The notes: generated from the sequence alone by a model not told the origin. Numbered from the stretch's first letter, positions 9,666 to 28,850 are shown. The stretch is 28,850 bases of DNA from an uncultured Rhodothermales bacterium (GCA_964487555.1 CAZART010000026.1:16144-44993); one strand, 5' to 3'. Made by a program: numbers and translations.

Positions 9666-9736
9666 GATGGACGGTCGCGACGATGCTCAGCTGCGATCCA
9701 ATATAACGGATGGCATTTCACTCGTGCCGAACCGTC

Positions 9737-10102
9737 CTATTCGGCCGGGGCGGCGAGGAGTTCATGATATTCGGCAGCCTTTCCGTGATCGTTCACTGCT
9801 TCATAGAACGCTGCGAGGCGCCGGAGGGCGGCGCCGGTCGGACCCTTACCATCACGAGCCGTCACGTAACCCTCGACCAGAAGGGACTCCGCTTCGTCGT
9901 AGCGTCGCTGGTGCATCAGGCATTCCCCGAGGACGCTCTTGGAAATGCCGGTCCACCATGAATCCTCCCTGAGCGTGGCGACCTGTATTCGGAGGACGTC
10001 ACGCAATATCGCCTCGGCACGTACGTACTCCCCCATTTGGAGATACGTGGCGCCGATCCCGCTAAGGGGTAGGTGCAACTTTCGAGGACGACGCCTTGGC
10101 AT
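9737..10102 (-). pseudogene. Orphan TPR-type C-terminal tail (121-aa ORF), probably the 3' remnant of a larger TPR-containing, possibly kinase-TPR, gene
   Basis: The translation GIGATYLQMGEYVRAEAILRDVLRIQ...SVLGECLMHQRRYDEAESLLVEGY...ALRRLAAFYEAVNDHGKAAEYHELL reads like the last two TPR units plus the terminal helix found in long TPR sensor proteins. The first 13 residues (MPRRRPRKLHLPL) look non-native. Only about 110 nt of upstream space remains before a divergent gene. It could still be expressed as a small TPR protein. Confidence 0.4.
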
Positions 10103-10210
10103 CCGGAGCAGCGTAGCAGAATCGTGTATTCACCCGATTGAGCTGAGGGGGATTCCGGAGGTATCCTCCAGTCGACTCCTCAACTGTTCATTCGACCTGC
10201 GTGGAAACCA

Positions 10211-11017: not shown

Positions 11018-11128
11018 CGTCTGCCCCATCAGCGTTGCCGTTCCGACGGTCTTTTCTCCGATAGTCCGATAGAAAGCGTGGCTCCCGACTGCCGCGCGCA
11101 CCCCCAACCTGCCATACCGGTATCCAAC

Positions 11129-16164: not shown

Positions 16165-16171
16165 TATCAGA

Positions 16172-16858
16172 ATGCGATCCAACAACGCCATGGCCCCCCA
16201 TTCGAATTCGTTGGTCGACGCTCCGCTTCGCATATGGCTCGTCGACGATGACAGCCGGTTTAGCGAGATGTTATCGTTGATCTTGAACGACGTCCCCGAC
16301 ATCATCTGCGATGCCGCTTTTGAGGATTGCGAATCGGCCCTCCGGCGGCTGAGCCAGAACGCCGATGGCGGACTGCCGGGCCTCGTGCTCATGGACGTCA
16401 ACCTTCCTGGAATGAATGGTCTCTCGTGCACGGCGCAGATACACGCACGTTTGCCGGAGGTCCCTATTCTCATGCTGACGATCCGTGACGACGCCGACAC
16501 CATCTATGCGGCTCTACGCGCGGGCGCCTCCGGATACCTCGTGAAAGAGTCGCCGATCGATCAGATCGTGGCAGCCATCCGAGAAGCGCGGAGTGGAGGT
16601 ATGCTGATGCCGGGACCTGTCGCCCGCAAGATGCTATCGTTCTTCGCGCAGGCCTCGTCTTCCGACTACGGCCTCTCTATTCGGGAAATGCAGGTTCTGG
16701 AGAAGATGGTAGAGGGGCTGTCGCAGAAGGAGATCGCTTCGGCACTCTTCGTGAGTCTCTCGACGGTAAACACGCACATCCAGAATATCTACGCGAAACT
16801 CCACGTGCACTCCAGTTCGGCCGCGGTTGCCAAGGCGCTTAAGGAGCGAATCATCTGA
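16172..16858 (+). CDS. NarL/LuxR-family response regulator (REC + LuxR-type HTH)
   Basis: Starts 8 nt after the kinase stop. REC motifs are IWLVDDD, LVLMDVNLPGMNG (phospho-acceptor Asp region), ILMLT and GASGYLVK. LuxR HTH: LSIREMQVLEKMVEGLSQKEIASALFVSLSTVNTHIQNIYAKLHV. Confidence 0.92.
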   Translation: MRSNNAMAPHSNSLVDAPLRIWLVDDDSRFSEMLSLILNDVPDIICDAAFEDCESALRRLSQNADGGLPGLVLMDVNLPGMNGLSCTAQIHARLPEVPILMLTIRDDADTIYAALRAGASGYLVKESPIDQIVAAIREARSGGMLMPGPVARKMLSFFAQASSSDYGLSIREMQVLEKMVEGLSQKEIASALFVSLSTVNTHIQNIYAKLHVHSSSAAVAKALKERII

Positions 16859-17025: not shown

Positions 17026-20000
17026 CTATCTCACCCGCACGATCGAGAGCGTCCGGATGGTGCCACCCGAGCGCATTCGCACCAGATACGTTCCACTCCC
17101 GACCGGCACACCCGCTTCGCTCCGGCCGTTCCACACGGCCGCATGGTAACCCGCCGATGCATTCCCTTCGACCAGCCGTGCCACACGCCTGCCCAGCAGG
17201 TCGTAGACCTCCAGGAGCACGGCCGACGCTTCCGGCACTCCGTACCGGAGCGTCGTTGCATGCTCAAAGGGGTTCGGGAAGTTCTGAAACAACTCGAAAC
17301 TCGACGGTATCTCCGGTCCCGCGTCCCGACCCGGAGTAACCAACAGCGTCAGACGACGCTCCTGCCCGTCCCCGCCGGAGGCGACCGCATAGTGCGGCTG
17401 CGCCCGCAGATCCTGCCGCACGCCCGCCACCTCGTCGACAAGCCACACGCCATACAACGACGGCACGGTCTTGACGCCGTCGAATTGCAGGTCTACCCGG
17501 CCGGAGCGACGGGTTTGAACGGCAACGGTCCAACGCTCTTCGTCCTCAGGCACCGGGCGTACGTCGGCGCTGTACCGCACGGCGTTCGTCTTCCACTCGG
17601 CGTGCGGGAACGACACCCGAACGAACTCCCCGATGCCCGGGGGCTCCGGGCGATCCAGTTCATCCAGGCCTACAGAGGCGTTGGAGGAAACCGCAGCGAA
17701 CGTATGCGCATCGCCGGCCTCACCCTGACTGGCCAGAATCCGGATGAACCATTCAAAGACGCCCTCTCGCCCGGCGCCTTGCACCGATTCACCTCGGCCT
17801 GCGGCCGAGACGTCCGGGTTGATCAGCAGCTCGTCGCTTCCGGGAGAAAAGACGGCATAGCCGGCGAAGGGCATGAGCGCGTCGTGAAGAGAACTCCAAC
17901 TCCCCTCGAACTTCAATAATTCAATGGCCCGGCCGGATGTCGCGCGGACGTTCGCCACGGGAACCGGGAAACTGAAGGGACTGCTCACGAGGTTCCATCC
18001 GTCGTGCAACGGGATTCGGAACGGCTCATCGGTGCGAAGCGACAGGCCTGCACCCGTCGTCAGTTCTTTTCCGGCCTCTTTCACGAGCAGCCAGTAGGCG
18101 TCGCCGGGTCTCAATTCCTGATAGACGCCCACTAATTCGGTGATCTGATCATCATCGAAGAAGCGCCATTTTGTTCTGTCGTACGGGCCGAGATCGTCTT
18201 CCAATACAGCACGCACGTTCTTCTCGTCGAGGTCGAGCGGAACGGAAATCAATCGGTAGGCCGCGGCTTCAGTGCCGGCATGCAACGGGTGGCGCAATCC
18301 GTCCGGCACGTAGAACGGCACAGAGATCGTACCCACCTCGGGCAGACTAGTCGAATGAAATGAGTTTGCAGCCGAGATGTAATACTCAACGCCGCGTTCA
18401 TGGCCCCAAATCGTCTCACTGAATTTGCCGGGAGGCCGCTCGACCAGCGGCTTGCTGCTGAAGGTCGTATCACCGCCGCGACGGTAGAAAAGGGATGCCT
18501 GGAGTCCGTCGCCGCTGCGATCATGGATGCTGGCCGTGACGACTACGTCCTGGTCCGGCGTGGGCACTGCAGGATCCACTCCGGATTCCTCAATGGTCAC
18601 ACCGAGGAGCTCTCGAAGCGACGTCAGCCAGATCGCGCCGCGGTCGATGCCTCCCGCTCGGGTCAAGGGAGCCCCGATGGCGACGTCGATGACGCCGTCC
18701 TCCACGTCGCCGAGTCCGGCAAGCGCTCGGCCGAAGCCTGTGGGGGTCGGGGCGTCGAAGCTGGTGAGGTGTTGTGTGTCCTTGACGCTGTCCTCCGCAG
18801 TTAGAAAGAGGAGAGTCATACCCTCTTGGCCACCTTTGCTCGCACCGACGATCAGTTCCCAGTTGCCATCTCCGTCGATGTCACCCAGCCCGGCCAGAGC
18901 TCCGGTGAGATCATCCACGTTGATGTCGTCCGGACGTATGGCGGTCGAGCGTGCCGTCGAGCCGTCTGCTTCGATCTGAAGGATGTGCAACCCGGCATCG
19001 CCGTCGGCGCCCACGGCGAGGCCGCGCCCGCCGGCCCGCGGGCCCAGATCTGCAAGCGCGCGGCCGAATTGAGGCGTTTCGGGATCCGAAAGGACCCTGT
19101 CCGCGGTGACGGTTCCATTCTCGTTCAGGTTCAGCAGCCATACGGCCCCGCGGTCTGGTCCCTGTTCGTCGTCGAACGGCGCACCCACGGCCAGATTGGG
19201 GCGGCCGTCGCCGGACAGGTCTCCGAGCGAGGCGACGGCAGCCCCAAATTCGTCGCCTTCGCTGACACTGATGCCTAACGTGGACGCATCAATCTTCTCG
19301 TGACTGCGCACGACACCGTCGTCGTCTAGGTGCAATATCCACACGGCACCCCGGCCGTCGTCACCCGGTGCGCCGACGGCCAGCGTCACGCCGTCGGCAC
19401 CACGCTCACCGACCTGAGCCAGCGCCGCACCGAAGCGGTCATTGTCGTTGAGCGTGCCGCCGAAAGCGCTCGAGGAGGCGCTGATTCGCTGATGGCGACG
19501 TATCGTGCCGTCGGGTTTGAGAAACAGGATCCATACGGCGCCTCGGACCGATCCGCCGCCGTCGTCGTCGGGAGCTCCAACGGCGAGGTCTTCGACGCCG
19601 TCCCCATCGAGATCGCCGAGGGACGCGAGCGCAGCGCCGAAATGGTCGAAATCGTCCGGTTGGAAAAGAAAATCTGCGGAGCGGACTTGATGGGTGCGTT
19701 TGACGGTGCCGTCTTCCCTGAGAAAAAGAAACCACAAGGCGCCGTTGCTGTCTTCACGATCGTTCCCAGTACCTGCCGCGACGATATCTGAAGAGACGAC
19801 GAGCGTCTCGACGGTCTCGGGATCGTTGTCCGTGTCGCCCAGCGCCGTGAGCAGGCGGCCGAAATAATCGTTTGCCAGGAGAGTTCCGTCAAAACCGCCT
19901 TCGTTCGACGCAATCTTGTGTTCGCGCTTGACGGTGCCGTTCAGGTTCATGAACAGGATCCACACTTCACCATGGAACCTCTCGCGCATCGCGGCCGGAC

Positions 20001-21183
20001 CATGGGCCATCCGGGTCCTCACGGCCGGCGCGGATACGGCCAGCTCAGGGACGTCGTCGCCATCGAGGTCGTTCAGCGCGGCTACATCCCACCCGAAATT
20101 CGTGCTATCCCGAAGCATGCCCTGAAACCCGCCGTCCGTGCGGCCGATCTTCTGATGCTCACTGACCGTACCGTCTCGGTTCATGAACAAGACCCATACG
20201 ACGCCATTCCAGCAGTTGGGCGTCTCGCAGCCATCGTCGTTATACCTTCCGCTCCCGACCAGTTCCGGCACACCGTCCCCATCGAGATCCAGGCTCGTGA
20301 TGCCCGGTCTGCCGAAGCCCTCCCTCGGACCCTCACCTATGAATCCACCCAGCCGGCATGTAAGATCGTCGTCGGAATCATGAAAATTACAGATGTGCTG
20401 AAAATCCGCCACTCCGTCGTCGTCGTCGAGAAAAGTAATGGTGATTCCGTCCCCGAACGACGTGTAGTCGGGATTCCGATCACCGTTGATATCCATGGCG
20501 CGGTCTCCTTCCGTAGCGCGACAGTGGTTCCAGTCTATGCCTTGCGGATGGGGCTCGTACTCACACACCGTCATCGTATCTCTGGCTGTGCCGTCGCGGT
20601 TGAGGTACAAGATCTTTGTATGGGATTTGTGGACGGAGGCATCAGGCAATGCTATAGCGCCTATCAGATCGGGTACGTCGTCGCCATCGACGTATCCCAG
20701 GGGTGTGACTCCGCCGACCGGTTCTAAACTCCCGTCGCCGCGCTTCAGCGCAATTTGCTGATAGCTGAGCACCGTACCGTCGGTGTGGATGAATAGGGTC
20801 CACACCGTCTGACCCGCCGCGAATGCCAGATCGTTGACGCCGTTCCCGTCCACGTCGCCTGCATTCACGAGCGTATGAAATTGTCCTTCAAGATCACCGC
20901 TGAATCTAATTCCGTTTTCGGCCCTTCCGCGCGGGTCTCCTTCGGTGGCACTGATTTTATGCGGCGTGGTGAGCTGAGCCTCCGCGACGACCGGCACCAT
21001 CAGGCCGAGCACGAGCGCGAGCGTTGCGCTACGAAATGCTGTCCGGAGCGCCGTACGGAATGCGGGTCGACGCGCGGTACGATGCACCCTTTGAAGCGGT
21101 ACGCGAAACGTATTACGAAGCCCGGTCTGGAATGCCTTTCGGCTCCCGGACATCACCTTCATTGGTCTGTATGCATCAGACAT
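17026..21183 (-). CDS. Very large FG-GAP (integrin-alpha-like/VCBS-type) repeat protein with T9SS C-terminal sorting domain
   Basis: More than ten units of the form FG-ALA-LGD(L/V)(D/N)GDG--DLAVGAP-DD-----GAVW(I/L)LFL--DGTV. Examples are FGAALASLGDLDGDGVEDLAVGAPDDDGGGSVRGAVWILFLKPDGTI and FGAAVASLGDLSGDGRPNLAVGAPFDDEQGPDRGAVWLL. A non-repeat beta-rich middle region follows. The T9SS CTD is FELFQNFPNPFEHATTLRYGVPEASAVLLEVYDLLGRRVARLV...GTYLVRMRSGGTIRTLSIVRVR. I prefer the ATG at 21183 (GGGAGGA 5 nt upstream) over the GTG at 21216. The signal peptide core is ATLALVLGLMVPVVAEAQ, after a long Arg-rich n-region. Confidence 0.9.
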   Translation of the reverse strand: MSDAYRPMKVMSGSRKAFQTGLRNTFRVPLQRVHRTARRPAFRTALRTAFRSATLALVLGLMVPVVAEAQLTTPHKISATEGDPRGRAENGIRFSGDLEGQFHTLVNAGDVDGNGVNDLAFAAGQTVWTLFIHTDGTVLSYQQIALKRGDGSLEPVGGVTPLGYVDGDDVPDLIGAIALPDASVHKSHTKILYLNRDGTARDTMTVCEYEPHPQGIDWNHCRATEGDRAMDINGDRNPDYTSFGDGITITFLDDDDGVADFQHICNFHDSDDDLTCRLGGFIGEGPREGFGRPGITSLDLDGDGVPELVGSGRYNDDGCETPNCWNGVVWVLFMNRDGTVSEHQKIGRTDGGFQGMLRDSTNFGWDVAALNDLDGDDVPELAVSAPAVRTRMAHGPAAMRERFHGEVWILFMNLNGTVKREHKIASNEGGFDGTLLANDYFGRLLTALGDTDNDPETVETLVVSSDIVAAGTGNDREDSNGALWFLFLREDGTVKRTHQVRSADFLFQPDDFDHFGAALASLGDLDGDGVEDLAVGAPDDDGGGSVRGAVWILFLKPDGTIRRHQRISASSSAFGGTLNDNDRFGAALAQVGERGADGVTLAVGAPGDDGRGAVWILHLDDDGVVRSHEKIDASTLGISVSEGDEFGAAVASLGDLSGDGRPNLAVGAPFDDEQGPDRGAVWLLNLNENGTVTADRVLSDPETPQFGRALADLGPRAGGRGLAVGADGDAGLHILQIEADGSTARSTAIRPDDINVDDLTGALAGLGDIDGDGNWELIVGASKGGQEGMTLLFLTAEDSVKDTQHLTSFDAPTPTGFGRALAGLGDVEDGVIDVAIGAPLTRAGGIDRGAIWLTSLRELLGVTIEESGVDPAVPTPDQDVVVTASIHDRSGDGLQASLFYRRGGDTTFSSKPLVERPPGKFSETIWGHERGVEYYISAANSFHSTSLPEVGTISVPFYVPDGLRHPLHAGTEAAAYRLISVPLDLDEKNVRAVLEDDLGPYDRTKWRFFDDDQITELVGVYQELRPGDAYWLLVKEAGKELTTGAGLSLRTDEPFRIPLHDGWNLVSSPFSFPVPVANVRATSGRAIELLKFEGSWSSLHDALMPFAGYAVFSPGSDELLINPDVSAAGRGESVQGAGREGVFEWFIRILASQGEAGDAHTFAAVSSNASVGLDELDRPEPPGIGEFVRVSFPHAEWKTNAVRYSADVRPVPEDEERWTVAVQTRRSGRVDLQFDGVKTVPSLYGVWLVDEVAGVRQDLRAQPHYAVASGGDGQERRLTLLVTPGRDAGPEIPSSFELFQNFPNPFEHATTLRYGVPEASAVLLEVYDLLGRRVARLVEGNASAGYHAAVWNGRSEAGVPVGSGTYLVRMRSGGTIRTLSIVRVR

Positions 21184-21252
21184 TGCTATCCTCCCATCTT
21201 TGGGAATCGATTCCACGCTCGCGAAAACTCAATCCGGCAGTCCCTTCTCGAG

Positions 21253-21771
21253 TCACTGTTCGGGATACACCGGCGGCGCCGGCAGATCCGGTACCTCTTC
21301 GTTTCGCAAAAGAAACGGTAGGGCCGCGACGCTGCCGACGACCACGGTGCGGCCGGCCCAATGGTACCAGGCATTGCCGCGCCACAGCCACGTGTACCAC
21401 CGCGGTTTGAGGTCGCTGACGAGGTCGGTGAACACGCGGGGATCGGTCTGTGGATCGGGCTTGAAGCGGCCGTCCGCTTTCAGCAACATCCGCACAGACC
21501 GGCGGGCCTCCTGGAGCGAGTCCCGGGCAACGTAGGAGAGCGCCATGAGCCGATATGCGCTCACGCGCTGGTCTTTCGGAGTGAACCCGTTCGGCAGGCA
21601 CGGCCGGAGGAGTCCGATCGTGCTCGCGAAACGGCCTACGTCGTACGTGTCGGCGGCCTCCGACAAGGTGGCGGCGTCGCACCCGGCCTGTGCCGCCCCG
21701 TTTTGAGCCGGGACCAGAAGTCCCAGCGCGAGAAGCAACGCGATGGAATGATGGCGAATGATCTTGGTCAT
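21253..21771 (-). CDS. Small TPR-like protein with signal peptide and C-terminal membrane anchor
   Basis: The ATG at 21771 overlaps the TGA of the upstream gene (ATGA), with a purine-rich GAGGAAGAGGAA just upstream. Signal peptide MTKIIRHHSIALLLALGLLVPAQNGAAQA. One TPR-like helical hairpin: AYRLMALSYVARDSLQEARRSVRMLLKADGRFKPD. Hydrophobic helix WYHWAGRTVVVGSVAALPFLL near the C-terminus, then a short Pro-rich tail. Family not recognised with certainty. Confidence 0.7.
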   Translation of the reverse strand: MTKIIRHHSIALLLALGLLVPAQNGAAQAGCDAATLSEAADTYDVGRFASTIGLLRPCLPNGFTPKDQRVSAYRLMALSYVARDSLQEARRSVRMLLKADGRFKPDPQTDPRVFTDLVSDLKPRWYTWLWRGNAWYHWAGRTVVVGSVAALPFLLRNEEVPDLPAPPVYPEQ

Positions 21772-24563
21772 TGTTCCTCTTCCTCTGTGCCCCTCGACGG
21801 CTTGCCCCGGTCGGCAGCCGTTAGCGAGCAAGGTTGATAGTCGCGTTCATAGGGGAAGTCATCACCGATGAATTGAGTCCACTCTTCCGGGCGCAGCTCG
21901 CGCCCTTTTACCGACGTGCAGACGGCCTCGGCAAGGCGCCCCGGCTTGACGTTCCAAAGGCGGATGGTGCGGTCGGCGCCCGCCGACGCCAGTCGCGTTC
22001 CATCGGGGCTGAACGCCAGCGACCAAACCCACGAGGCGTGATCCTGAAGGAGAATCGGACGCGTATCCAGCCGCCCGACATCCCATACCTGCACGCTGTG
22101 GTCGGCACTGCCGGACGCGAGGGTCTCACCATCGCTGCTAAACGCCACGGCGTGAACCGGGCCTTCGTGACCCCGCAGCGTCCGCGCAACGTCCGGCACG
22201 GCGTCCGAGGCCTTCAACCGCCATAACCTGACCAGCAGGCTGTCACCGCCCGATGCCAGAAGCGTGCCGTCGGGGCTAAACACCAGACCGTGCAGGATGC
22301 CTTGCCCCGCGTCCCACGTGGTGGGCCGGCCTTCGGGTTCCTGCCAGGCCCAGAGCTGCAGACGGCCGTTCTCACCGCCGATGGCGAGCAACCGTCCGTC
22401 CGGGCTGAAGGAAAGCGAGCGGATCCGCGTACGGACGTCCAGCTCGACCGAATCGCGATCGGCACCCATGCTGCGGACGACGACGGTATGGTCCGCTCCT
22501 GCGGAGGCCAGGTGCGAGCCGTCGGGGGAGAAGGCCAGCGTCCAGACGCCGCTCTCGTGGCGTCCGATCGTCTCCGGCACCGGTGTTTCCGCGTCCAGGC
22601 CGCTCCAGATCCGCACGGTGAGATCGTCGCCGGCCGAGGCCAGCATCGTTCCATCGGGGCTGAAGGCCACGCTCCGCACGGCGGCTCGGTGACCCTTCAA
22701 CTGCTTCCGTTCGCCGCCGGTACCGTTCGGCCACAGGGTTACGCCGCCGGCGTCGTCTCCGGCGGCGACCCAGTGGCCATCGGGACCGTACGCCACGGAA
22801 CGCACCTGAGCCTCCGCCGCGAAAACCTCTGGACCACCTGCGTCGTCGTCGGCATCGAGGGCGTTGAGGCTCTGAAGCAGGGCGTCATAGACGGGATCCA
22901 GAAACTCCCCTTCGCCTTCCCGGCTGAACAAATAGGCCTGCCGGGCCAGCAGCGCTCCCAGTTCGGCATCGCCGAGTCGGAGTTGGCGGGTGGCCGTGCT
23001 GGCCAGAGCGATGGTAATGGTCTCGAGCCGCGCCGCCTGGGTCTCGTCGAGACGCGTTTCCGCCACCGAGCGAAGTGAGTCGGAGACGTGGACTTCGGCC
23101 GCCAGCTGCGTGTTGAGCGAGTCGGAAACGGCAAACTGGGCGGCGAGCTGGGCGTTGACCGCCTCCGTCTCGAGCCGCAGGGCATCGGAGACCGCAAACT
23201 CGGCCGCCAGCTGCGTGTTGATCGCTTCCGTTCCGGCTCGAAGAGAGTCTGAAATCCGAACCTGGTTGGACAACTGCACGTTGGCCGCTTGCGCCGCTGC
23301 GTGGAGGGAGTCGGTGATCTGGATCTGGTCCGACAACTGCTGGTTCAGCGCTTCTTGAACCGCGCTCTGCCGTTCTGCCTGGCCCGCCCGCTGGGTTTGC
23401 AGTACGAAGAGGCCGAGCAGAACCACCGACATGAAGAGGGCCGCCACGAGGCCGAGCACGGCGGGAGGCACGCGCCGGATCCAATGCTCCGGCCACTGGT
23501 CCTTGAGCCATGAGCGGTTGAAGACCGCCGCATAGATCGGGTTGCGGACTTCCAACCGGCCGTTTTGTCGTCCGACGATGCCGGAGAGCTTGAGGTGCGT
23601 GATGGGGGCCGATTGTACGTCGTCGGGTACGCGCCGCCCCTGTAGGATGGCCTGGTACGTGGCCAGAACCGCGCTCGGATCCGCCGCCCGGCGCGTCAAC
23701 ATGTCGTGGACGAAGCGTAGATTGCTGTCGTGCTCGCTCTGCTGCCCGAGGAACGTCGCCGTCACGGCGCGGTCGACGTCCACGTCGGTTGACCCGATGT
23801 GCTGCTGCTCGGCGATGACCTGACAGAGCCGCTGCGTCAGGTACGGATGGCCGCCGGTCCAGCGTACGACGTCACGAAGTTGCTGCCGCGCTTCGTCCGC
23901 AGGCAGGTCGAATCCGCCGGCCAGCGGCATCGCTTCGTCTTCAGTGAAGTAGTCCAGGTCTATACGTCGACCGACGTTAAAAGGGGTGCGGCGAGGGTCG
24001 CCGATCAGGTCGTTCGGCGTGGCCACACCGATCAGGACGAATGAGAGCCGCTTGAAGGCAGGAACAGTGGATCGGGCGTTATGGACGTATCGGATCGCGG
24101 CAAAGAAATCATCGGTGAACGGCAGACTCAGCGTGCTGTCGATTTCGTCGATAAAGATCACTACCGGTTCGGCGATCTCTTCCAGCAGGATTTCTTGCAA
24201 AAACTGCGTTAACCGCTGCGTGAAGCCAAGTTGCTCGTGGGTCTTCCACCAGGTAAAAACGTCGGCCTTCAGCCGGAGGCGGCGGCTGATCGCCATGATG
24301 AGACCGAAGTACCACGCCTCATCCTCGACCTGGACGCCCATCTGACTCAGATCTATGATTACGGAGCGCACGCCTTCGTCGGCCAGCCGTTCGGCCGTTC
24401 GGATCATGAGGCTGGACTTGCCCATCTGCCGAGCCGTCAACACGAAGGCGAACGTTTGGCTGCGGCAGAGTTGGAGAAGCTCGTCGTCGACCTCGCGCGG
24501 GATGTAGAGACCGCTGCCGGCCTGCACGGTCCCGCCTATGGTAAAGATGTTTTCTTTAGCCAT
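21768..24563 (-). CDS. AAA-like (PF14516/AAA_35-like, STAND-style) P-loop NTPase, followed by one TM helix, a 21-residue-repeat coiled coil and a 7-blade WD40 propeller
   Basis: The N-terminal roughly 355 aa follow the pattern I know from cyanobacterial AAA-like domain proteins. That pattern is FTIGGTVQAGSGLYIPREVDDELLQ...FAFVLTARQMGKSSL (Walker A), VVIFIDEIDS (Walker B), RRTPFNVGRRIDL and WTGGHPYLTQRLCQ. The remaining elements are annotated as separate sub-features. The ATG at 24563 lies inside the last codons of the upstream gene (an 8-nt overlap). Confidence 0.9.
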   Translation of the reverse strand: MAKENIFTIGGTVQAGSGLYIPREVDDELLQLCRSQTFAFVLTARQMGKSSLMIRTAERLADEGVRSVIIDLSQMGVQVEDEAWYFGLIMAISRRLRLKADVFTWWKTHEQLGFTQRLTQFLQEILLEEIAEPVVIFIDEIDSTLSLPFTDDFFAAIRYVHNARSTVPAFKRLSFVLIGVATPNDLIGDPRRTPFNVGRRIDLDYFTEDEAMPLAGGFDLPADEARQQLRDVVRWTGGHPYLTQRLCQVIAEQQHIGSTDVDVDRAVTATFLGQQSEHDSNLRFVHDMLTRRAADPSAVLATYQAILQGRRVPDDVQSAPITHLKLSGIVGRQNGRLEVRNPIYAAVFNRSWLKDQWPEHWIRRVPPAVLGLVAALFMSVVLLGLFVLQTQRAGQAERQSAVQEALNQQLSDQIQITDSLHAAAQAANVQLSNQVRISDSLRAGTEAINTQLAAEFAVSDALRLETEAVNAQLAAQFAVSDSLNTQLAAEVHVSDSLRSVAETRLDETQAARLETITIALASTATRQLRLGDAELGALLARQAYLFSREGEGEFLDPVYDALLQSLNALDADDDAGGPEVFAAEAQVRSVAYGPDGHWVAAGDDAGGVTLWPNGTGGERKQLKGHRAAVRSVAFSPDGTMLASAGDDLTVRIWSGLDAETPVPETIGRHESGVWTLAFSPDGSHLASAGADHTVVVRSMGADRDSVELDVRTRIRSLSFSPDGRLLAIGGENGRLQLWAWQEPEGRPTTWDAGQGILHGLVFSPDGTLLASGGDSLLVRLWRLKASDAVPDVARTLRGHEGPVHAVAFSSDGETLASGSADHSVQVWDVGRLDTRPILLQDHASWVWSLAFSPDGTRLASAGADRTIRLWNVKPGRLAEAVCTSVKGRELRPEEWTQFIGDDFPYERDYQPCSLTAADRGKPSRGTEEEEQ
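21939..22817 (-). other. WD40 beta-propeller, 7 blades (sub-feature of CDS 21768..24563)
   Basis: Seven units. (1) VRSVAYGPDGHWVAAGDDAGGVTLW. (2) GHRAAVRSVAFSPDGTMLASAGDDLTVRIW. (3) RHESGVWTLAFSPDGSHLASAGADHTVVVR. (4) IRSLSFSPDGRLLAIGGENGRLQLW. (5) ILHGLVFSPDGTLLASGGDSLLVRLW. (6) GHEGPVHAVAFSSDGETLASGSADHSVQVW. (7) DHASWVWSLAFSPDGTRLASAGADRTIRLW. Confidence 0.9.
23052..23345 (-). repeat. In-frame degenerate tandem repeat, 63-nt / 21-aa unit (five units of 21, 21, 21, 14 and 21 aa) encoding a probable coiled coil
   Basis: Protein residues 407-504 of CDS 21768..24563. The units are NQQLSDQIQITDSLHAAAQAA, NVQLSNQVRISDSLRAGTEAI, NTQLAAEFAVSDALRLETEAV, NAQLAAQFAVSDSL and NTQLAAEVHVSDSLRSVAETR. 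All unit lengths are multiples of 7. The periodicity is also visible in the DNA (recurring gccagctgcgtgtt...gagtcgga). Confidence 0.75.
23400..23471 (-). other. Predicted single transmembrane helix (sub-feature of CDS 21768..24563)
   Basis: Residues 365-388, VPPAVLGLVAALFMSVVLLGLFVL, form an uninterrupted 24-residue hydrophobic stretch. It is preceded by HWIRR (positive-inside on the NTPase side) and followed by QTQRAGQAERQ. Confidence 0.7.
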
Positions 24564-27204
24564 CGAAGTGATCCCGGAAGTACTCGGCGTAGAGTCTGCA
24601 TCGGGGTATCACGGCCCGCCCGTCCCGAAGTACGAGCCCGGCGCCCTGCAGCCTCCAGAAGACCTCGTCGTCATCGCACCTCTGGTGCCGGATGACCTCT
24701 CGCAGACCCGCTATCAGGTCGTCGTGTCCGTGGAGCCGGAACAGGTGGTAGCGCAGGTGATCACCGAAGGGACCGCGGTCGCGTGTGGCGGAAGCAAGCA
24801 GCTCGGAGATCGACATCTGCCCGCCGGCGACGAGGTAAAACGCTTTGCGCGTCAAATACGGGTGCCCGCCCAGCATCGCCATCATTTGCCCGATCTCATC
24901 CGCTGAGCACGGCGCGCCGTGTCGATCGCCGAGTTCCTCCACTTGCCCCGGTGTGAAGTCCTTCATCTCGATGATTTCCCCGACGTTAAACGGCGATTGA
25001 TTCAGGTTTTCGATCAGCTGGTAGGGTTCGGTGGAGGTGACGAGGGCCAGGTCCAGCCGCTTCCATATTCGGGCGGTGGCGCGGTCGTTGTGCCAGCTGC
25101 GCAGCATCCCGAAGAAATCGGAGCGGAAGCCCGTATCGAAGACGCGTTCAACCTCGTCCATGGCCAGCACCAGTGGCCGGTCGATGGCTCCCAGGATACA
25201 GTCTTCGACATAGAGCGTACAGCACTGGCTATTGCCCAGCGGCCACTGCCAGTATTCCTCCACTCTATTCTCCAGCTTCAACTTGAAGGTGAGCCAGACG
25301 CAGAACTGTTGGAAGAACGTGTCGGCGTCGTTTAGAGCCGACTGATTGAACAGTTGAAAATCGAGGAAAACGACCTGCTTTCCGGCTTTGGCAGCCGCGT
25401 TCATCGTGCGTACGAGCAGGGAACTCTTGCCCATCTGGCGTGGGCCTTTGATGGTAAGGGTAACTCCTCGCTGCTTGATGGCCCCTTGGGCTACGTCGTC
25501 TTGCGGTCGGTGCACGTAGAAGGCGGAGTGCGGGTCCATCGTACCCTCCGGCGTCTCGAGGTGCGGTTGCGCCGCCGCCAGCGGTTCCGGGAACGTCGGC
25601 GGAGCCTGCTCTTCGGTCGGACGGGCACGGGCACGCCACGACGCGCTGAGATCGCCACCGGCAATGGCGCGCGTGAGCTGCTCGATCAACCTGGAAGTAT
25701 CCGCTTCGCCGCCCCAGAAGGCCCAGTTGAGATCGTTGAGATAGGCGCTGAGGGGGTAGACAAACGGCTGCGTATAGTCCAGACGCACGGGGAGGAGGGC
25801 CGGTCGCCCACCCCGTTCCTCCGCCAGGCGGTGTGCCGTCTGGATCTCCGCGAGCACCATTTCGCTGTGGATGGATCGGGCCGACAGCAGGACGATTAGA
25901 AAATCGGACTGTGCCAATTCGGCTTCAATCTGCGCGATCCAGCGCGCGCCTATCGGCAGCATCGTATCGATGAAAACGTCGTGGTCGCTGCTCAGGGCGT
26001 CGTAGATCGCGCCGGCGACCTCATCGTCGGGCTCTCCGCCTCTCTTGTAGCTGATGAAGATGCGCGGCCGCTGGAGGTGGTTGGTACGGTCCAGGGAAGG
26101 CGCATCTACAGGTGTCGTATCCGGAAGCGGTGTGGCGGCGCCCCGTTCGAGGAGACGGCGCCGTACACGGTGTAGATCGGCCAGCAGCAGGGACGCCGTC
26201 CGATAGCGGTTGGTCCGCTGCTTCTCAAGACACTTGTAAACGACGGCCCCAAGATCCGGCGGCAGATCGCCGTTGAGCAGCGCCATCGGTAGGGGATCCT
26301 CGTTCAGCACCTGATAGATGGTGGCCTGCTCGGTCCCTTCGCGAAACGGCCTCTTTCCAGTGATCATTTCGTACATGACGACGCCCAGCGACCACAAATC
26401 CGTCCGCTGGTCGACCGCCTCGCCGCGCGCCTGCTCCGGACTCATGTAGGCCGCCGTCCCCAGCGCCGTACCTGCCCGCGTCAGGCTTACATCTTGCACT
26501 TTTGCGATCCCGAAATCGACGAGTCTAACGCGTGCCTGTTCGGTCACGATGACGTTGCTCGGCTTGATGTCCCGGTGCAGGATTCCGCCCGTATGTGCCG
26601 CCTTCAGCCCATCGGCCATCTGTATCGCGTGGTCGAGGGCCTCTTCCAGCGGAATCGCGCCGCGCGCGATCCTCGCTTTGAGCGTCTCGCCGGAATAGTA
26701 GGCCATTGCGATGAAGAGCCGCCCGTCATCCGTCTCGTCGACGTCGTAGACGGTGCAGATGTTGGGGTGGTCCAGCGCGGAGGCCGCCTTGGCCTCGTGC
26801 ATGAAGCGCACCTTGGCCTGCTCGTCCAGATTCAGGTGGGGCGAGAGAAACTTAAGCGCCACACTGCGATCGAGCCTCGTGTCGCGAGCTTTGTAGACGA
26901 CGCCCATGCCACCCCGGCCGAGCTGTTCCTGAACCTGATACCGGGAAATGTTCAGTCCGGTTAGGTCATGTAGCCCCGGCTGAGCCGCTGAGGGAGCCGC
27001 CAAAAGGAATCGTTCGAGGACGTTGCGGACGCCGCCGCCCCGGTCCTCGAAGGCGCCGAGCAGGGCTTCCACTTCGTAACGGATGTCGTCGTCAGGGCTT
27101 TCTCGGTCGAGGTAGGCGTTACGTACGTCGGGCTCGAGGTCGGCGGCTTCATCAAAGAGGCGCCGGATCTGCTCGGCGCGCTGGTCTGAGACGGGAAGGC
27201 TCAT
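24556..27204 (-). CDS. Multidomain Ser/Thr protein kinase, TIR and AAA-like (PF14516-like, STAND-style) NTPase fusion protein
   Basis: 882 aa. The N-terminal helical leader RAEQIRRLFDEAADLEPDVRNAYLDRESPDDDIRYEVEALLGAF is typical of kinases partnered with TIGR02999/ECF43 sigma factors. The kinase, TIR and NTPase domains are annotated as sub-features. Its stop lies 8 nt inside the next gene. Confidence 0.9.
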   Translation of the reverse strand: MSLPVSDQRAEQIRRLFDEAADLEPDVRNAYLDRESPDDDIRYEVEALLGAFEDRGGGVRNVLERFLLAAPSAAQPGLHDLTGLNISRYQVQEQLGRGGMGVVYKARDTRLDRSVALKFLSPHLNLDEQAKVRFMHEAKAASALDHPNICTVYDVDETDDGRLFIAMAYYSGETLKARIARGAIPLEEALDHAIQMADGLKAAHTGGILHRDIKPSNVIVTEQARVRLVDFGIAKVQDVSLTRAGTALGTAAYMSPEQARGEAVDQRTDLWSLGVVMYEMITGKRPFREGTEQATIYQVLNEDPLPMALLNGDLPPDLGAVVYKCLEKQRTNRYRTASLLLADLHRVRRRLLERGAATPLPDTTPVDAPSLDRTNHLQRPRIFISYKRGGEPDDEVAGAIYDALSSDHDVFIDTMLPIGARWIAQIEAELAQSDFLIVLLSARSIHSEMVLAEIQTAHRLAEERGGRPALLPVRLDYTQPFVYPLSAYLNDLNWAFWGGEADTSRLIEQLTRAIAGGDLSASWRARARPTEEQAPPTFPEPLAAAQPHLETPEGTMDPHSAFYVHRPQDDVAQGAIKQRGVTLTIKGPRQMGKSSLLVRTMNAAAKAGKQVVFLDFQLFNQSALNDADTFFQQFCVWLTFKLKLENRVEEYWQWPLGNSQCCTLYVEDCILGAIDRPLVLAMDEVERVFDTGFRSDFFGMLRSWHNDRATARIWKRLDLALVTSTEPYQLIENLNQSPFNVGEIIEMKDFTPGQVEELGDRHGAPCSADEIGQMMAMLGGHPYLTRKAFYLVAGGQMSISELLASATRDRGPFGDHLRYHLFRLHGHDDLIAGLREVIRHQRCDDDEVFWRLQGAGLVLRDGRAVIPRCRLYAEYFRDHFDG
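24565..25539 (-). other. AAA-like P-loop NTPase module paralogous to the N-terminus of CDS 21768..24563 (sub-feature of CDS 24556..27204)
   Basis: Walker A is GPRQMGKS (nt 25423..25446, checked on the DNA) and Walker B is LVLAMDEVE. QSPFNVGEIIEM corresponds to RTPFNVGRRIDL in the neighbouring protein. LGGHPYLTRKAF corresponds to TGGHPYLTQRLC. Confidence 0.8.
25771..26067 (-). other. TIR domain (TIR_2/PF13676-like; sub-feature of CDS 24556..27204)
   Basis: RIFISYKRGGEPDDEVAGAIYDALSSDHDVFIDTMLPIGARWIAQIEAELAQSDFLIVLLSARSIHSEMVLAEIQTA. This shows the F(I/V)SY start, the D--L--G--W---I—— S-(hydrophobic)4-LS pattern, and a Glu (E453, codon 25846..25848) at the position of the catalytic Glu of NAD-cleaving TIR domains. 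Confidence 0.8.
26170..26940 (-). other. Hanks-type Ser/Thr kinase catalytic domain (sub-feature of CDS 24556..27204)
   Basis: All catalytic signatures are present. These are the Gly-rich loop LGRGGMGVVY, VALK (Lys118), HRDIKPSNV (HRD at nt 26569..26577, checked on the DNA), DFGIAK and GTAAYMSPEQ. Confidence 0.9.
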
Positions 27205-27357
27205 AATACGGCCTGGTATGATCGCTCATCCTGGAGGATCTATCGTGGAGAAGGTCGTCCCTGACGTCTTCAATGGCAAAGAAAGAGATCCGTGCCTCCT
27301 CTATCATGGACGAAGCCTTTCTGCTGCCTCTCATCTAAATAGGCCGCAAAACGACAC

Positions 27358-27390
27358 AGATTTTTCATCGGCTCGAAAAAAGTATATTTC
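27358..27390 (+). promoter_or_regulatory. Candidate promoter in an AT-rich island upstream of the ECF sigma gene
   Basis: The only strongly AT-rich stretch of the 269-bp divergent intergenic region is gatttttcatcggctcgaaaaaagtatatttcc. It contains TTTTCA (27362..27367), a 15-nt spacer and TATATT (27383..27388). TAtaTTTc also resembles the Bacteroidota -7 motif TAnnTTTG. This rests on pattern only, and the spacing is not ideal. Confidence 0.25.
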
Positions 27391-27473
27391 CTGGGGAGAG
27401 CAGGTCGCATGGAGGGCGTCCAGGTGCTCTCCGGATCGGCGCGCACAGCACGTAACGGTCTCTCACAAATCCG

Positions 27474-28049
27474 ATGCCCATGCAGGAAGACGTTACACAG
27501 ATGCTCGTGCAGTGGAGCGATGGCGACGATGATGCCCTCGAGCGGCTCCTGCCGCTACTCTACGACGAGCTAAAGCGCCTGGCCGGTGCGCGTATGCGAG
27601 GCGAGCGCTCCGATCATACGTTGAACACGACCGCCCTCGTTCACGAAGCCTATCTAAAGCTCATAGACGTCGACCGTGTACAGTGGACAGACCGGGCGCA
27701 CTTTCTGGCCATGGCCTCGCGACAGATGCGTCGGATCCTTATTGACTACGCGCATCGGCGGAATGCCCGAAAACGTGGGGGCGGCGTGGAACACGTAGCG
27801 CTGGAAGAGGAGCGGTATATTCCGGAGGACTATGCCGATACGCTGCTCGAGTTGGACGATGCCCTGCAACGCTTCGAGAAGTCGTATCCCCGACAGGCGG
27901 AGGCCGTTGAATTGCACTATTTCGGCGGCCTGACGTTGGAGGAGTCCGGCGCGGTGCTCGGCGTTTCGGCGCCTACGATCATGCGAGATCTGCGATTCGC
28001 CCACTCGTGGCTGGCGCGCGACTGGGATCCGGATTCTCCCGATGCTTAG
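27474..28049 (+). CDS. ECF sigma factor, TIGR02999 / ECF43-like (Ser/Thr-kinase-associated type)
   Basis: Family-typical N-terminus DVTQMLVQWSDGDDDALERLLPLLYDELKRLAGARMRGERSDHTLNTTALVHEAYLKL. Also W-DRAHFLAMASRQMRRILIDYAHRRNARKRGGG. Region 4: VELHYFGGLTLEESGAVLGVSAPTIMRDLRFAHSWL. It is divergent from the kinase fusion gene. Confidence 0.9.
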   Translation: MPMQEDVTQMLVQWSDGDDDALERLLPLLYDELKRLAGARMRGERSDHTLNTTALVHEAYLKLIDVDRVQWTDRAHFLAMASRQMRRILIDYAHRRNARKRGGGVEHVALEEERYIPEDYADTLLELDDALQRFEKSYPRQAEAVELHYFGGLTLEESGAVLGVSAPTIMRDLRFAHSWLARDWDPDSPDA

Positions 28050-28618
28050 AGGCTAATTGTTCCACCCCACTCCTTCGCGAACCACGCCCGGGCAAATCGC
28101 AAGTCGCGCTCCACGGTCGTTAGCGATACGCTCAGCGCTTCGGCAGTTTCTTCATTCGTCAAGCCGCCGAAGTATCGGTGCTCGACGGCCTCCGCCTGCC
28201 GAGGATGCGTCTCCTCGAAGCGCTTAAGAGCGTCGTCGAGTTCCAGCAGCGTCTCAGCGTGTTCGTCCGGAATCAGGCGCTCCTCGTCGAGTGTTTCCCG
28301 CTGCGCGCCTCCGCCTCGCTTCTGAGCCTTTCGCTGGAGCGCATAATTGACGAGGACACGCCGCATCACCTTCGAGGCCATCGCAAAGAAATGGCCGCGG
28401 TTTTCCCATTGAATCTGGTTGATGTCGGCCAGCCTCAGGTACGCTTCGTGAACGAGGCCCGTCGTGTTTAGCGTGTGGCCCGGCCGTTCCTCTCGCAACC
28501 GTGCGTGAGCGAGTTTGCGCAGCTGCTCGTAGAGGACGGGCACGATCCGATCGAGCGCCTCGCGATCGCCCTCCCCGTAGGCGTTCAGGAGCCTGGTCAC
28601 GTCGGCCTGTGAGAGCAT
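28046..28618 (-). CDS. ECF sigma factor, TIGR02999 / ECF43-like, paralog of 27474..28049
   Basis: DVTRLLNAYGEGDREALDRIVPVLYEQLRKLAHARLREERPGHTLNTTGLVHEAYLRL...HFFAMASKVMRRVLVNYALQRKAQKRGGG...VEHRYFGGLTNEETAEALSVSLTTVERDLRFARAWF. My gap-free hand alignment with the neighbour gives 107 identical positions out of 190. The stop codon TAA (complement of 28046..28048) overlaps the neighbour's TAG (28047..28049). Confidence 0.9.
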   Translation of the reverse strand: MLSQADVTRLLNAYGEGDREALDRIVPVLYEQLRKLAHARLREERPGHTLNTTGLVHEAYLRLADINQIQWENRGHFFAMASKVMRRVLVNYALQRKAQKRGGGAQRETLDEERLIPDEHAETLLELDDALKRFEETHPRQAEAVEHRYFGGLTNEETAEALSVSLTTVERDLRFARAWFAKEWGGTISL

Positions 28619-28771
28619 CGGCCTACCGGTTGCAAATGCGGAGTGCGTACGCAGAAGAGAATGTTCGTCCCTTTCGGACGATACTGGATTTGACCCAGCA
28701 ATACAAAATTATGGCCCTATCAGTGGTCCAAATTCCGTATTCACGGGTAGAATAATTGTTGTTTCTCATTC

Positions 28772-28850
28772 CGGTGCGCCACCGTCATTCGTTTCCGGTG
28801 CGCCGCCTGGGTTCGTTTACGGTGCGCCGCCTGGGTTCGTTTACGGTGAG
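28772..28850. repeat. 24-bp direct tandem repeat, 3.3 copies, continuing to the window edge
   Basis: Copy 1 is cggtgcgccaccgtcattcgtttc (28772..28795). Copy 2 is cggtgcgccgcctgggttcgttta (28796..28819). Copy 3 is cggtgcgccgcctgggttcgttta (28820..28843). A partial copy cggtgag follows. Copies 2 and 3 are identical, and copy 1 differs in the middle. Confidence 0.85.

Follow-up and report, generated by a model that had tools for sequence, protein, structure and literature searches.

The window analysed here, a stretch of 28,850 nucleotides from an uncultured Rhodothermales bacterium, contains a compact cluster of six genes. Four of them lie on the minus strand. Gene A (27204->24556, 882 residues) encodes a kinase–TIR–AAA_35 protein, gene B (24563->21768, 931 residues) an AAA_35–TM–WD40 protein, gene C (21771->21253, 172 residues) a TPR-like secreted protein and gene D (21183->17026, 1385 residues) an FG-GAP protein with a T9SS sorting domain. 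Two ECF43-type sigma factors, sigma1 (27474..28049, plus strand, 191 residues) and sigma2 (28618->28046, minus strand, 190 residues), are found beside gene A. Base-by-base reading of the junctions shows that A and B overlap by 8 nt (ATGGCTAA) and B and C by 4 nt (ATGA), while C and D are separated by a spacer of 69 nt with the motif GGGAGGA 6 nt upstream of the ATG of D. An alternative GTG start of D is seen at 21216. All six reading frames, both overlaps, the gap and its motif had been listed in the initial annotation and are present in the sequence. The cluster had also been described as divergent from the sigma gene. This is true for sigma1, which is divergent from A, and the described stop overlap is likewise found, as sigma1 and sigma2 are convergent with overlapping stop codons (TTAG); sigma2, however, has the same direction as A–D.

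The 269 nt that separate the divergent genes A and sigma1 (27205..27473, assigned to neither strand) presumably bear promoters. A dyad search in this region gave nothing exceeding shuffled controls, and no motif could be called. A shared ECF-type promoter was looked for upstream of sigma, A and D and was not found; autoregulation and regulon membership are thus unsupported. The chromosomal context of the window is ordinary with uniform GC content. No tRNA genes are present in the window, and profile scans of its larger reading frames revealed no mobile-element or defence-gene domains. The window also holds further T9SS cargo genes.

Both sigma factors score far above the TIGR02999 cutoff of 126 bits (sigma1 219 bits, sigma2 218 bits) and match PF07638 (3e-56 and 9e-58, respectively); their sequence identity to each other is 58%. 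At the phospho-acceptor position in sigma2.2, TLNTTA is found in sigma1 and TLNTTG in sigma2, in each case immediately before LVHEAYL, and TLNTT[AG] is identical in all eight clade sigma factors compared. In ECF43 sigma factors, a ‘QTTA’ phospho-Thr motif takes the place of the acidic DAED patch in region 2.2 (PMC13147305, PMC8999054), and the ECF43 sigma EcfK is a direct phosphorylation substrate of PknS (PMC13147305). The clade motif TLNTT[AG] matches this phospho-Thr motif replacing DAED. Neither the window nor the locus tables show an anti-sigma-like gene.

Protein A starts with a PknS-type N-terminal helical module (residues 1–80; 26965..27204, minus strand). A single-sequence search with this module gave no match, while the clade profile A4 matches residues 3–60 of 9eed_A alone in the PDB (E = 2.1e-5). 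Entry 9EED is PknS(1–364) from Xanthomonas citri, and the proposal that A has a kinase head of the ECF43-partner type is upheld by this match. The module is followed by a Hanks-type Ser/Thr kinase domain (residues 89–339; 26188..26940, minus strand), which is detected by PF00069 (4.7e-49) and by comparison with PknB (1e-58). Residues K118, E137, D212, K214, N217, D230-F-G, T250 and E257 are kept in 20 of 20 clade members, and judged by these residues the kinase is catalytically intact. Inspection of the sequence reveals no TM segment in A.

Behind the kinase, A carries a TIR domain (residues 382–502; 25699..26061, minus strand; PF13676, TIR_2, 2e-18) and a STAND-type NTPase (residues 552–877; 24574..25551, minus strand; PF14516, AAA_35, 3.8e-111). 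Walker A (GPRQMGKS, with K593 as its lysine) and Walker B (LAMDE) of this NTPase are invariant in the alignments, and it is devoid of sensor repeats. An AF2 model of residues 372–882 (pLDDT 81.6) was used for a Foldseek search. The best match is the tetramer core of the TIR-NLR RPP1 (8e-11), and Avs3 (1e-6), ORC/Cdc6, Sr35, WRR4A and Dark are also found. The modelled NTPase fold therefore appears NLR/STAND-like, nearest to RPP1 and Avs3, and A combines Walker A and B with an NB-ARC/NACHT/ORC-like fold as a STAND protein does. The catalytic-type glutamate of the TIR domain is E453 within the motif SEMVLAEI. It is invariant across phyla in alignment A1 and present in 19 of 20 members of the kinase clade, with Gln at this position in the remaining one. 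K118 and E453 had thus been named rightly as key residues of A.

It could be that the TIR domain is catalytically silent and only an inherited scaffold, and that the whole module is an unusual ECF43 receptor with the sigma–kinase pathway as its single output. TIR domains often serve as assembly scaffolds. The Gln in one clade member would fit this reading, as would the locus L093, where the TIR_2 match is faint and TIR identity is 40%. Moreover, the kinase and sigma motifs are conserved more strictly than the TIR domain. The conservation of the glutamate and of the SEMV..E motif, across phyla as well as in the clade, is however hard to square with a pure scaffold, and we regard a silent TIR domain as rather unlikely.

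Protein B contains a second, paralogous AAA_35 NTPase (residues 11–349; 23517..24533, minus strand; PF14516, 8.5e-37). Its Walker A is TARQMGKS, deviant at the first position, and its Walker B is IFIDE. NTPases of the A type and of the B type share 27–32% identity, whereas 50–66% is observed across phyla within each type, a pattern expected of two co-evolving partners; the NTPase of B itself shares 50–70% identity with B-type NTPases of other phyla. The NTPase is followed by a lone TM helix (residues ~365–390; 23394..23471, minus strand) with a Kyte–Doolittle 19-residue mean of up to 2.8, and an equivalent helix at the same position after the NTPase is present in about 56 of 58 B-type proteins of other phyla. 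Residues 391–575 (22839..23393, minus strand) read as a stalk and linker, helical or coiled-coil and rich in repeats. Homologues of this middle part, termed B_mid, are confined to the kinase clade, while charged coiled coils occupy its position in other phyla. The C-terminal part is a WD40 β-propeller of ~7 blades (residues 580–885; 21909..22826, minus strand; PF00400, 1.4e-60; 8.7e-111 against 2ymu). As one predicted TM helix comes after the cytoplasmic NTPase, the propeller is predicted to be periplasmic. Its blades in the window clade share 40–53% identity among each other, compared with 81–90% in the homogenised Nostoc arrays; by this comparison, no hypervariable or homogenised sensor is found in the window clade. 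Such ordinary blades are consistent with a fixed ligand. B had been proposed to be a membrane-spanning paralogous NTPase bearing the repeat sensor, and AAA_35, single TM helix and WD40 are indeed all found. The other domain assignments of the initial annotation were equally confirmed by profile searches of the window reading frames.

Proteins C and D are both secreted partners. C has a signal peptide, an invariant Cys31/Cys58 pair (alignment A3), a C-terminal anchor helix rich in Trp, and a tail rich in Pro. Its core is modelled by AF2 with pLDDT 93–98, and Foldseek finds TPR folds (SGT, HOP, Fis1) with weak E-values. With only 18 clusters among 5.8e9 proteins, C is a clade-specific periplasmic TPR-like protein and is specific to the kinase-bearing system. 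D contains FG-GAP repeats (PF01839, 9.8e-23), a hydrophobic signal-like segment at residues ~53–70 and a T9SS sorting domain at residues 1302–1382 (nt 17038–17280, minus strand; TIGR04183, 31.2 bits against a cutoff of 23). It thus has both the N-terminal signal peptide and the C-terminal type A sorting domain of T9SS cargo.

Synteny was compared in about 15 independent loci with 48–70% identity of A. With 13 independent assemblies, an assembly or gene-calling chimera of A is very unlikely. A and B are adjacent in 14 of 14 loci, C directly follows B in 14 of 14, and a D-like gene is found after C in 10 of 10 loci reaching far enough. A sigma gene adjoins A in 9 of 11 loci, the exceptions being L082 and L091. 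The expected co-occurrence across genomes therefore holds for A–B, B–C and C–D; for sigma it is strong but not universal. The 8-nt start–stop overlap of A and B is retained in L001, L003, L006, L008, L091 and L093, while the outer flanks of the cluster are unrelated between loci. Kinase and TIR-NTPase are on a single polypeptide in ~20 protein clusters. The sigma lineage itself varies from locus to locus. Sigma1 shares only 46–47% identity with the lineage of ‘proximal’ sigma factors in L001, L003 and L093, and sigma2 shares 70% with the sigma at the distal position in L101 and 62% with that of L008. Two sigma paralogs beside one kinase are observed in the window and in L101. P0046, the nearest kinase-only relative, has neither an adjacent sigma gene nor the N-terminal module.

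These data show that A–B–C–D and an ECF43-type sigma gene form a real conserved unit, as had been proposed from the window. A sigma/kinase pair lying by chance beside an unrelated STAND pair, C and D being bystanders, is contradicted by the kinase–TIR–NTPase fusion and by the synteny. The fusion is one reading frame throughout its clusters; gene order, overlaps, C and D are kept at this degree of divergence although the outer flanks vary, and the rare C was found immediately behind B in all loci examined. The TIR-AAA_35/AAA_35-WD40 pair does occur alone in hundreds of genomes, without kinase, sigma, C and D, and two clade loci are without adjacent sigma. Nevertheless, mere adjacency of unrelated units is highly improbable.

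The cassette of a TIR-AAA_35 protein and an AAA_35-TM-coiled coil-WD40/FGE-sulfatase protein is present in at least 579 loci from cyanobacteria, Chloroflexota, Acidobacteriota, Myxococcota and others. CHAT, MinD/ParA-like, EAD7 and kinase domains occur in A homologues, and one B homologue bears an FGE-sulfatase domain. A separate kinase fusion to the cassette is found once, at L017, without a nearby sigma gene. This two-gene cassette is ancient and predates the kinase fusion. The additions of the clade are the PknS-type kinase head, the ECF43 sigma with its TLNTT motif, C and the FG-GAP T9SS protein D. The initial annotation had proposed that a kinase replaced its sensor region by TIR and NTPase, and the direction has to be reversed: a widespread A/B cassette, including its TM helix, captured a kinase and a sigma factor.

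The A/B cassette is a member of the class outlined in general terms by Kaur et al. (2020, 2021). The NTP-dependent conflict systems of these reports share with it the effectors TIR, CHAT, EAD7 and S/T kinase, the C-terminal WD40 or FGE-sulfatase sensors, a STAND/ORC-like P-loop NTPase, and an abundance in filamentous cyanobacteria, Chloroflexota and Myxococcota; the cassette likewise shows variable effectors, a conserved NTPase and a WD40 or FGS sensor. [quoted passage not shown] In the text consulted, the systems consist of one chain or are tied to EADs, recognition is intracellular, and the kinase effectors are reported as mostly inactive, whereas the kinase of A is intact by residues. An obligate paralogous NTPase pair, a TM helix with coiled-coil stalk, a sigma link and C and D are not mentioned there. 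Because the class has already been outlined, what is new is the combination and the paired, membrane-spanning arrangement rather than the components.

Among catalogued defence systems, Avs1–5, bNACHT and Thoeris resemble the cluster in the STAND-like NTPase, the TIR catalytic Glu and the structural match to Avs3. However, Avs and bNACHT consist of one cytoplasmic chain that senses phage proteins inside the cell, Thoeris is without STAND, and a link to a sigma factor or secreted partners exists in none of them. PADLOC v2 and the NCBIfam antiphage models give no system-level match for the cluster. Only generic kinase matches (PD-T4-6, mad6) and weak TIR matches (ThsB, 2e-5; ThcB4, 30.7 bits against a cutoff of 220) are obtained, and no model matches either AAA_35 domain, C or D. 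A putative sigma-kinase fused to an NLR-like TIR/ATPase with a membrane-spanning WD40 partner is not described in the literature searched. The supposition that no described system has this composition is thus sustained for PADLOC v2, NCBIfam and this literature.

These comparisons bear on an anti-phage or anti-invader abortive infection function. In this case B would sense an invader, A would oligomerise and NAD+ depletion or an immune signal from the TIR domain would be the main effector; the kinase would act on many targets as a further toxic or regulatory effector, while sigma would merely boost expression of the locus. The CHAT caspase-like, EAD7 and TIR N-termini and the WD40/FGE-sulfatase sensors of other phyla fit such a function. 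This vocabulary is that of the counter-invader systems of Kaur et al. 2020/2021. The nearest structures, RPP1 and Avs3, are immune receptors, the TIR Glu is kept, ThsB and ThcB4 are weakly matched at the TIR level, and the homogenised Nostoc repeats are typical of fast-evolving receptors. Against it, a system-level PADLOC or NCBIfam match is lacking, the sensor is predicted to be extracytoplasmic whereas phage proteins are made in the cytoplasm, the sensor of the window clade is non-hypervariable, and the chromosomal setting is ordinary. The module preceding the kinase is specifically of the PknS type, the kinase is accompanied by a sigma partner, and two secreted structural-type proteins, C and D, are strictly co-conserved. 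We therefore consider abortive infection an unlikely main function, though one to be taken seriously.

Close parallels are EcfP-PknT of Vibrio parahaemolyticus and EcfK-PknS of Xanthomonas citri. They have the same TIGR02999/PF07638 sigma with xTTx in place of DAED, no anti-sigma gene and an adjoining active Hanks kinase, and PknS has the same N-terminal helical module as A. The known ECF43/kinase pairs answer envelope or antagonism cues (polymyxin; amoeba predation via T6SS). Their kinases are one chain of kinase, TM and periplasmic domain. In contrast to PknS and PknT, the kinase of A lacks a TM segment and continues into TIR and a STAND NTPase, and the TM helix and propeller are on B. TM and sensor are thus not on the same chain as the kinase, and A works like a canonical receptor kinase without being one.

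A second parallel is found in paired NLRs of plants and animals (RRS1/RPS4, the NRC network, NAIP/NLRC4), which likewise consist of two adjacent paralogous NOD proteins, one chain with the repeat sensor and the other with the TIR effector. Among TIR-NLR resistosomes (RPP1, ROQ1), the TIR-NOD fold of A is nearest to the RPP1 tetramer core. Effectors, NOD and sensor are not on a single polypeptide here: A has effectors and NOD, B has NOD and sensor. Unlike plant and animal NLRs, the pair is bacterial, its sensor chain is membrane-spanning with a propeller predicted to be extracytoplasmic, and its effector chain adds a protein kinase putatively aimed at a sigma factor.

Our reading, which we consider about as likely as not, is that the cluster is a trans-envelope signalling module in which an ECF43 sigma factor has been coupled to a paired NLR-like STAND receptor. 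B would detect, with its WD40 propeller in the periplasm, an envelope or surface cue, possibly the condition of C and D or a foreign molecule that they help to bind. The signal would pass the membrane and switch the NTPase of B, which would then nucleate a hetero-oligomer with A as in sensor/helper NLRs or NAIP/NLRC4. Clustering of A would juxtapose the kinase domains for trans-autophosphorylation, and the kinase would phosphorylate one or both sigma factors, probably at the second Thr of TLNTT, as in EcfP/PknT and EcfK/PknS. The phosphorylated sigma factor would bind RNA polymerase and transcribe a regulon, probably including its own operon and other FG-GAP/T9SS surface proteins. As a second output, the clustered TIR domains may hydrolyse NAD+ or produce a nucleotide signal; otherwise they may be an oligomerisation scaffold only. 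The missing sigma gene beside A at L082 and L091, the variable sigma lineage, P0046 without sigma or N-terminal module and the L017 fusion without sigma count against this signalling module. CHAT, EAD and TIR effectors, which are characteristic of defence or cell-suicide systems, occur across the wider cassette; its ancestral function may therefore be immunity rather than signalling.

More broadly, and more tentatively than for the signalling module itself, we propose that bacteria possess membrane-spanning paired NLR-like receptors, and that in this Rhodothermales clade the pair has been redirected, its immune-type oligomerisation switch driving transcription through phosphorylation of ECF43 sigma factors, with the TIR output kept. 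The sensor STAND, whose WD40 or lectin-like FGS domain lies outside the cytoplasm, would then nucleate a sensor-less TIR-STAND protein inside the cell. If true, this would be a direct bacterial counterpart of pattern recognition at the surface that feeds into a transcriptional response, and through this cluster a receptor pair of immune type would be connected to gene transcription.

All six open reading frames claimed in the initial annotation are found by ORF calling. They are A, a kinase-TIR-AAA_35 protein (27204→24556), B, an AAA_35-TM-WD40 protein (24563→21768), C, a secreted TPR-like protein (21771→21253), and D, an FG-GAP/T9SS protein (21183→17026), all on the minus strand, together with the ECF43-type sigma factors sigma1 (27474–28049, plus strand) and sigma2 (28618→28046, minus strand). 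Base-by-base reading of the junctions bears out the A/B overlap ATGGCTAA, the B/C overlap ATGA, and the 69-nt C–D gap, in which GGGAGGA closely precedes the D ATG. The same reading shows that sigma1 and sigma2 converge with overlapping stops. Of the two, only sigma1 is divergent from A–D; sigma2 runs in the direction of A–D. Every domain claimed for A, B, D and both sigma factors is backed by profile searches: Pkinase (4.7e-49), TIR_2 (2e-18) and AAA_35 (3.8e-111) in A, AAA_35 (8.5e-37) and WD40 (1.4e-60) in B, FG-GAP and a T9SS sorting domain in D (the latter above its cutoff), and TIGR02999 at about 218 bits in each sigma factor (cutoff 126). By hydropathy scan, B has a single strong transmembrane helix (residues 365–390) between NTPase and WD40, C and D carry signal-type segments, and no transmembrane or signal-type segment is found in A.

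The rest of the window is an ordinary FCB-group chromosome with a TonB receptor, sugar enzymes and another T9SS cargo protein; its GC content is uniform and it contains no tRNA genes. Two regulatory genes at 12898–16858 converge with D at its 3′ end; they encode a 1088-aa histidine kinase of the Reg_prop/Y_Y_Y hybrid type and a response regulator of the LuxR family. A T9SS cargo gene with SBBP repeats occupies 11078–12790. No link of these three genes to the cluster is seen in other loci. At the edge of the window, some 150 nt upstream from sigma2, there is a 24-nt tandem repeat (28769–28848, 3.3 copies, 89% matches). Short tandem repeats of unrelated sequence also flank the sigma genes of the homologous loci L001 and L003. 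The exact sigma1 protein is absent from a collection of 15 billion proteins in which A, B, C and sigma2 are present. Because of its tail-to-tail overlap with sigma2, public annotation may use another start or omit the gene.

In a search for homologues of A, the full kinase-TIR-AAA_35 architecture recurs in about 20 protein clusters (48–70% identity), and those that are named come from Rhodothermales/'Bacteroidetes' MAGs. This clade is small and known from metagenomes alone. Neighbourhoods were collected for about 15 independent loci, seeded from A, from C, and by a genome scan (L020, L040, L082). The suggested co-occurrence of A-B-C-D with a sigma factor is conserved across them: A and B are adjacent in 14/14 loci, B and C likewise in 14/14, C and D in 10/10, and an ECF sigma gene adjoins A in nine of 11. 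Even the 8-nt A/B overlap is kept in six loci. The genes on the outer flanks vary between loci, and thus the conservation of the cluster is not general synteny. In 5.8 billion proteins the C family forms no more than 18 clusters, and each member examined sits directly after a B gene. A C-seeded metagenome scan gave only five contigs, all short, one of which is the L006 record. The reading that these are unrelated units which are merely adjacent is rejected, since the A-B-C-D order and the placement of C after B are conserved amid differing outer flanks. L082 and L091 are the two loci that lack a sigma neighbour. In L082 (11511–14264) B is divided between two ORFs of 439 and 450 aa and there is no sigma upstream, and in L091 (2064–4298) the sigma position is taken by a gene for a 744-aa protein that matches no Pfam model.

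The Hanks catalytic residues of the A kinase are all invariant in 20/20 clade proteins. The kinase is preceded by an N-terminal extension of about 80 residues. A single-sequence query with the A N-terminus found nothing in the PDB; the clade profile alone gave a match, to the one entry 9EED (residues 3–60, E=2.1e-5), which is PknS(1–364) of X. citri. PknS directly phosphorylates the ECF43 sigma factor EcfK (PMC13147305). Similarity of the kinase domain was rejected as sufficient proof of ECF43 partnership, because the nearest kinase-only relative of A, P0046, lacks both the extension and a sigma neighbour.

All clade sigma factors compared contain TLNTT[AG] followed by LVHEAYL. In ECF43 sigma factors an uncharged xTTx motif replaces DAED and holds the phospho-acceptor threonine (PMC13147305, PMC8999054), and by sequence TLNTT[AG] is that motif. 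Two sigma lineages can be distinguished. In L001, L003, L093 and L101 the proximal, co-directional sigma is of the TLNTTA type, while the TLNTTG lineage includes sigma2, the L008 sigma and the distal one of L101. The window has two copies of this second lineage, 58% identical to each other. Among relatives with usable context the closest is L101, in which both lineages are present with one sigma apiece. The layout of L101 (1301–3570) is unlike that of the window: its two ECF43-type sigma genes beside A have a small gene between them, whose 175-aa product is hydrophobic at the N-terminus and matches HEAT_2 faintly. An exhaustive search for promoter dyads (5-mer-N14-18-4-mer) upstream of sigma and in the sigma-A spacers of seven loci gave a best candidate in 3/7, equal to shuffled controls. 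The motif TTGCGTGA[TC] is common to L006, L008 and L004 and absent from the window. The sigma-A spacers of L006 (1013–1038) and L008 (2741–2956) share the 17-mer CTCCATTTGCGTGATAT, and L004 has the related TTGCGTGAC; this motif, which the window lacks, could be a promoter or operator element.

The A/B pair itself is far more widespread. A scan for the TIR-AAA_35 module, with one genome per species, found at least 579 related loci, mainly in Nostocales and other filamentous cyanobacteria, Chloroflexota, Acidobacteriota, Myxococcota, KSB1 and Rhodothermales. In nearly all of 80 fetched loci a B-type AAA_35 gene immediately follows the A-type gene; examples (within L009–L090) are Nostoc sp. CHAB 5824 (L015), a Pyrinomonadaceae member (L009) and Hyalangium versicolor (L069). 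Across phyla, A-type NTPases are 50–66% and B-type NTPases 50–62% identical, while A and B share only 27–32%; judged from sequence, they are two ancient, co-inherited paralogs. B-type proteins follow one plan everywhere: the NTPase, one hydrophobic helix, a long charged coiled coil, and WD40 repeats or an FGE-sulfatase domain. The helix lies at about residue 360–420 in 45/58 proteins at a strict cutoff and in about 56/58 at a relaxed one. Its position right after the NTPase implies a putative extracytoplasmic sensor across the cassette. N-terminal to the TIR, A-type proteins of other lineages carry CHAT, MinD/ParA-like or EAD7 domains. One Anaerolineae MAG (L017, JAFGNV010000181.1, about 8760–11545) combines an EAD-like N-terminus with Pkinase, TIR and AAA_35. 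Its kinase is 38% identical to that of A, no sigma gene is found within 9 kb, and it is apparently a second, independent kinase fusion. In the Nostoc loci L015 and L023 the B-type genes encode at least 12 WD40 blades that are 81–90% identical to each other, homogenised and probably fast-evolving arrays. In contrast, the blades of the window clade are only 40–53% identical, which suggests a fixed rather than a diversifying ligand.

The AlphaFold2 model of A 372–882 (pLDDT 81.6, pTM 0.78) is closest to the tetramer core of the plant TIR-NLR RPP1 (8e-11), followed by Avs3, ORC/Cdc6, Sr35, WRR4A and Dark. On this model A contains a TIR-STAND, and A and B look like an effector/sensor NLR pair. A PDB sequence search with the TIR-AAA_35 region returned spurious RecA P-loop matches only. 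The accessible part of Kaur et al. 2020/2021 describes effector-STAND-FGS systems with NACHT, MNS-clade (Npun2340/2341 family) or nSTAND1 NTPases. These NTP-dependent conflict systems share the domain vocabulary of the cassette (CHAT, EAD7, TIR, WD40, FGS), but the paralog pair, the transmembrane segment and the sigma factor are not described in that part. The kinase effectors it reports are mostly inactive, whereas the kinase residues of A are all conserved. Identity of AAA_35 with iSTAND (Kaur 2020) is rejected because iSTAND is catalytically inactive and both NTPases keep their Walker motifs. The PADLOC check proposed initially found no named system: PADLOC v2 and NCBIfam (June 2026) gave generic kinase and weak TIR matches only, and nothing for the AAA_35 domains, C or D. 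The literature searched contained no ECF sigma phosphorylation linked to TIR or STAND proteins, did not name PF14516, nowhere combined an 'AAA-like domain' with TIR, WD40 and STAND, and for bacterial paired NLRs gave plant work only.

In this clade the cassette has gained the kinase head, the ECF43 sigma factors, C, D and the B stalk, the region between the transmembrane helix and WD40, which has matches within the clade only. C carries a signal peptide and an invariant pair of cysteines, Cys31 and Cys58. Its helical, TPR-like core is confidently predicted, and it also has a C-terminal anchor helix rich in Trp and a tail rich in Pro. C as a lipoprotein is rejected, as in several homologues R or T precedes the invariant Cys, and the match of C to the TssQ model is sub-threshold (28.6 bits, cutoff 65). 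D is a large FG-GAP protein with predicted T9SS export.

From the directly established architecture, catalytic motifs, sigma motif and synteny we infer a mechanism in six steps. The B propeller would be periplasmic, because the transmembrane helix follows the ATP-dependent domain, the flanking charges fit an N-in orientation and the strictly co-conserved C and D are both exported; the topology is assigned by hydropathy only. An envelope cue would switch the B NTPase, and B would nucleate A, like NAIP with NLRC4 or a sensor NLR with its helper. The clustered kinase heads would autophosphorylate and then phosphorylate the sigma factor(s) on TLNT*T. Precedents for sigma phosphorylation by a partner kinase are EcfP/PknT and EcfK/PknS. 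The sigma factor would then drive a regulon, probably including the A–D operon and other FG-GAP/T9SS genes; in L001 four more such genes lie just upstream. The TIR domains may provide a second, NAD-based output or act as an assembly scaffold only.

We give about an even chance to this route from envelope cue through a B/A oligomer to sigma phosphorylation, with or without TIR output. It is weakened by the missing sigma neighbour in two of 11 loci and by the failure to find a promoter motif (seven loci). The catalytic motifs of the kinase, the TIR and both NTPases are intact, and TIR E453 is kept in 19/20 clade proteins and invariant in the TIR-AAA_35 alignment across phyla. An abortive-infection or defence role with the TIR as main effector is the main rival and seems rather improbable to us; ranked after it, and a shade harder to credit, is a single-output sigma pathway in which the TIR is silent.

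Taken singly, the parts are of known kinds: the ECF43/Hanks kinase pair on one side, effector-STAND conflict systems on the other. The class of the core cassette has been outlined before, and the sigma-linked mechanism is wholly inferential. Within the accessible portions of the sources searched, neither the kinase/sigma/TIR-STAND combination nor the cassette as a paired, membrane-spanning receptor is described. ECF43 sigma factors are switched on by receptor kinases whose own activation is poorly understood. If the mechanism is true, NTP-driven NLR-type oligomerisation would replace the usual ligand-induced dimerisation, a new input logic for sigma control. Bacterial STAND/NLR-like proteins are currently seen as cytoplasmic sensors with lethal effectors; the locus suggests that the output could instead be transcriptional and non-lethal, and the sensor extracytoplasmic. 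The TIR-STAND plus TM-STAND-WD40/FGS cassette would be a testable bacterial model of sensor/helper NLR pairing, and its kinase-less form is common in tractable organisms; the reference-genome loci include genetically tractable Nostoc strains. For the clade itself, the strict co-conservation with D and C points to a likely role in cell-surface surveillance or control in the FCB group.
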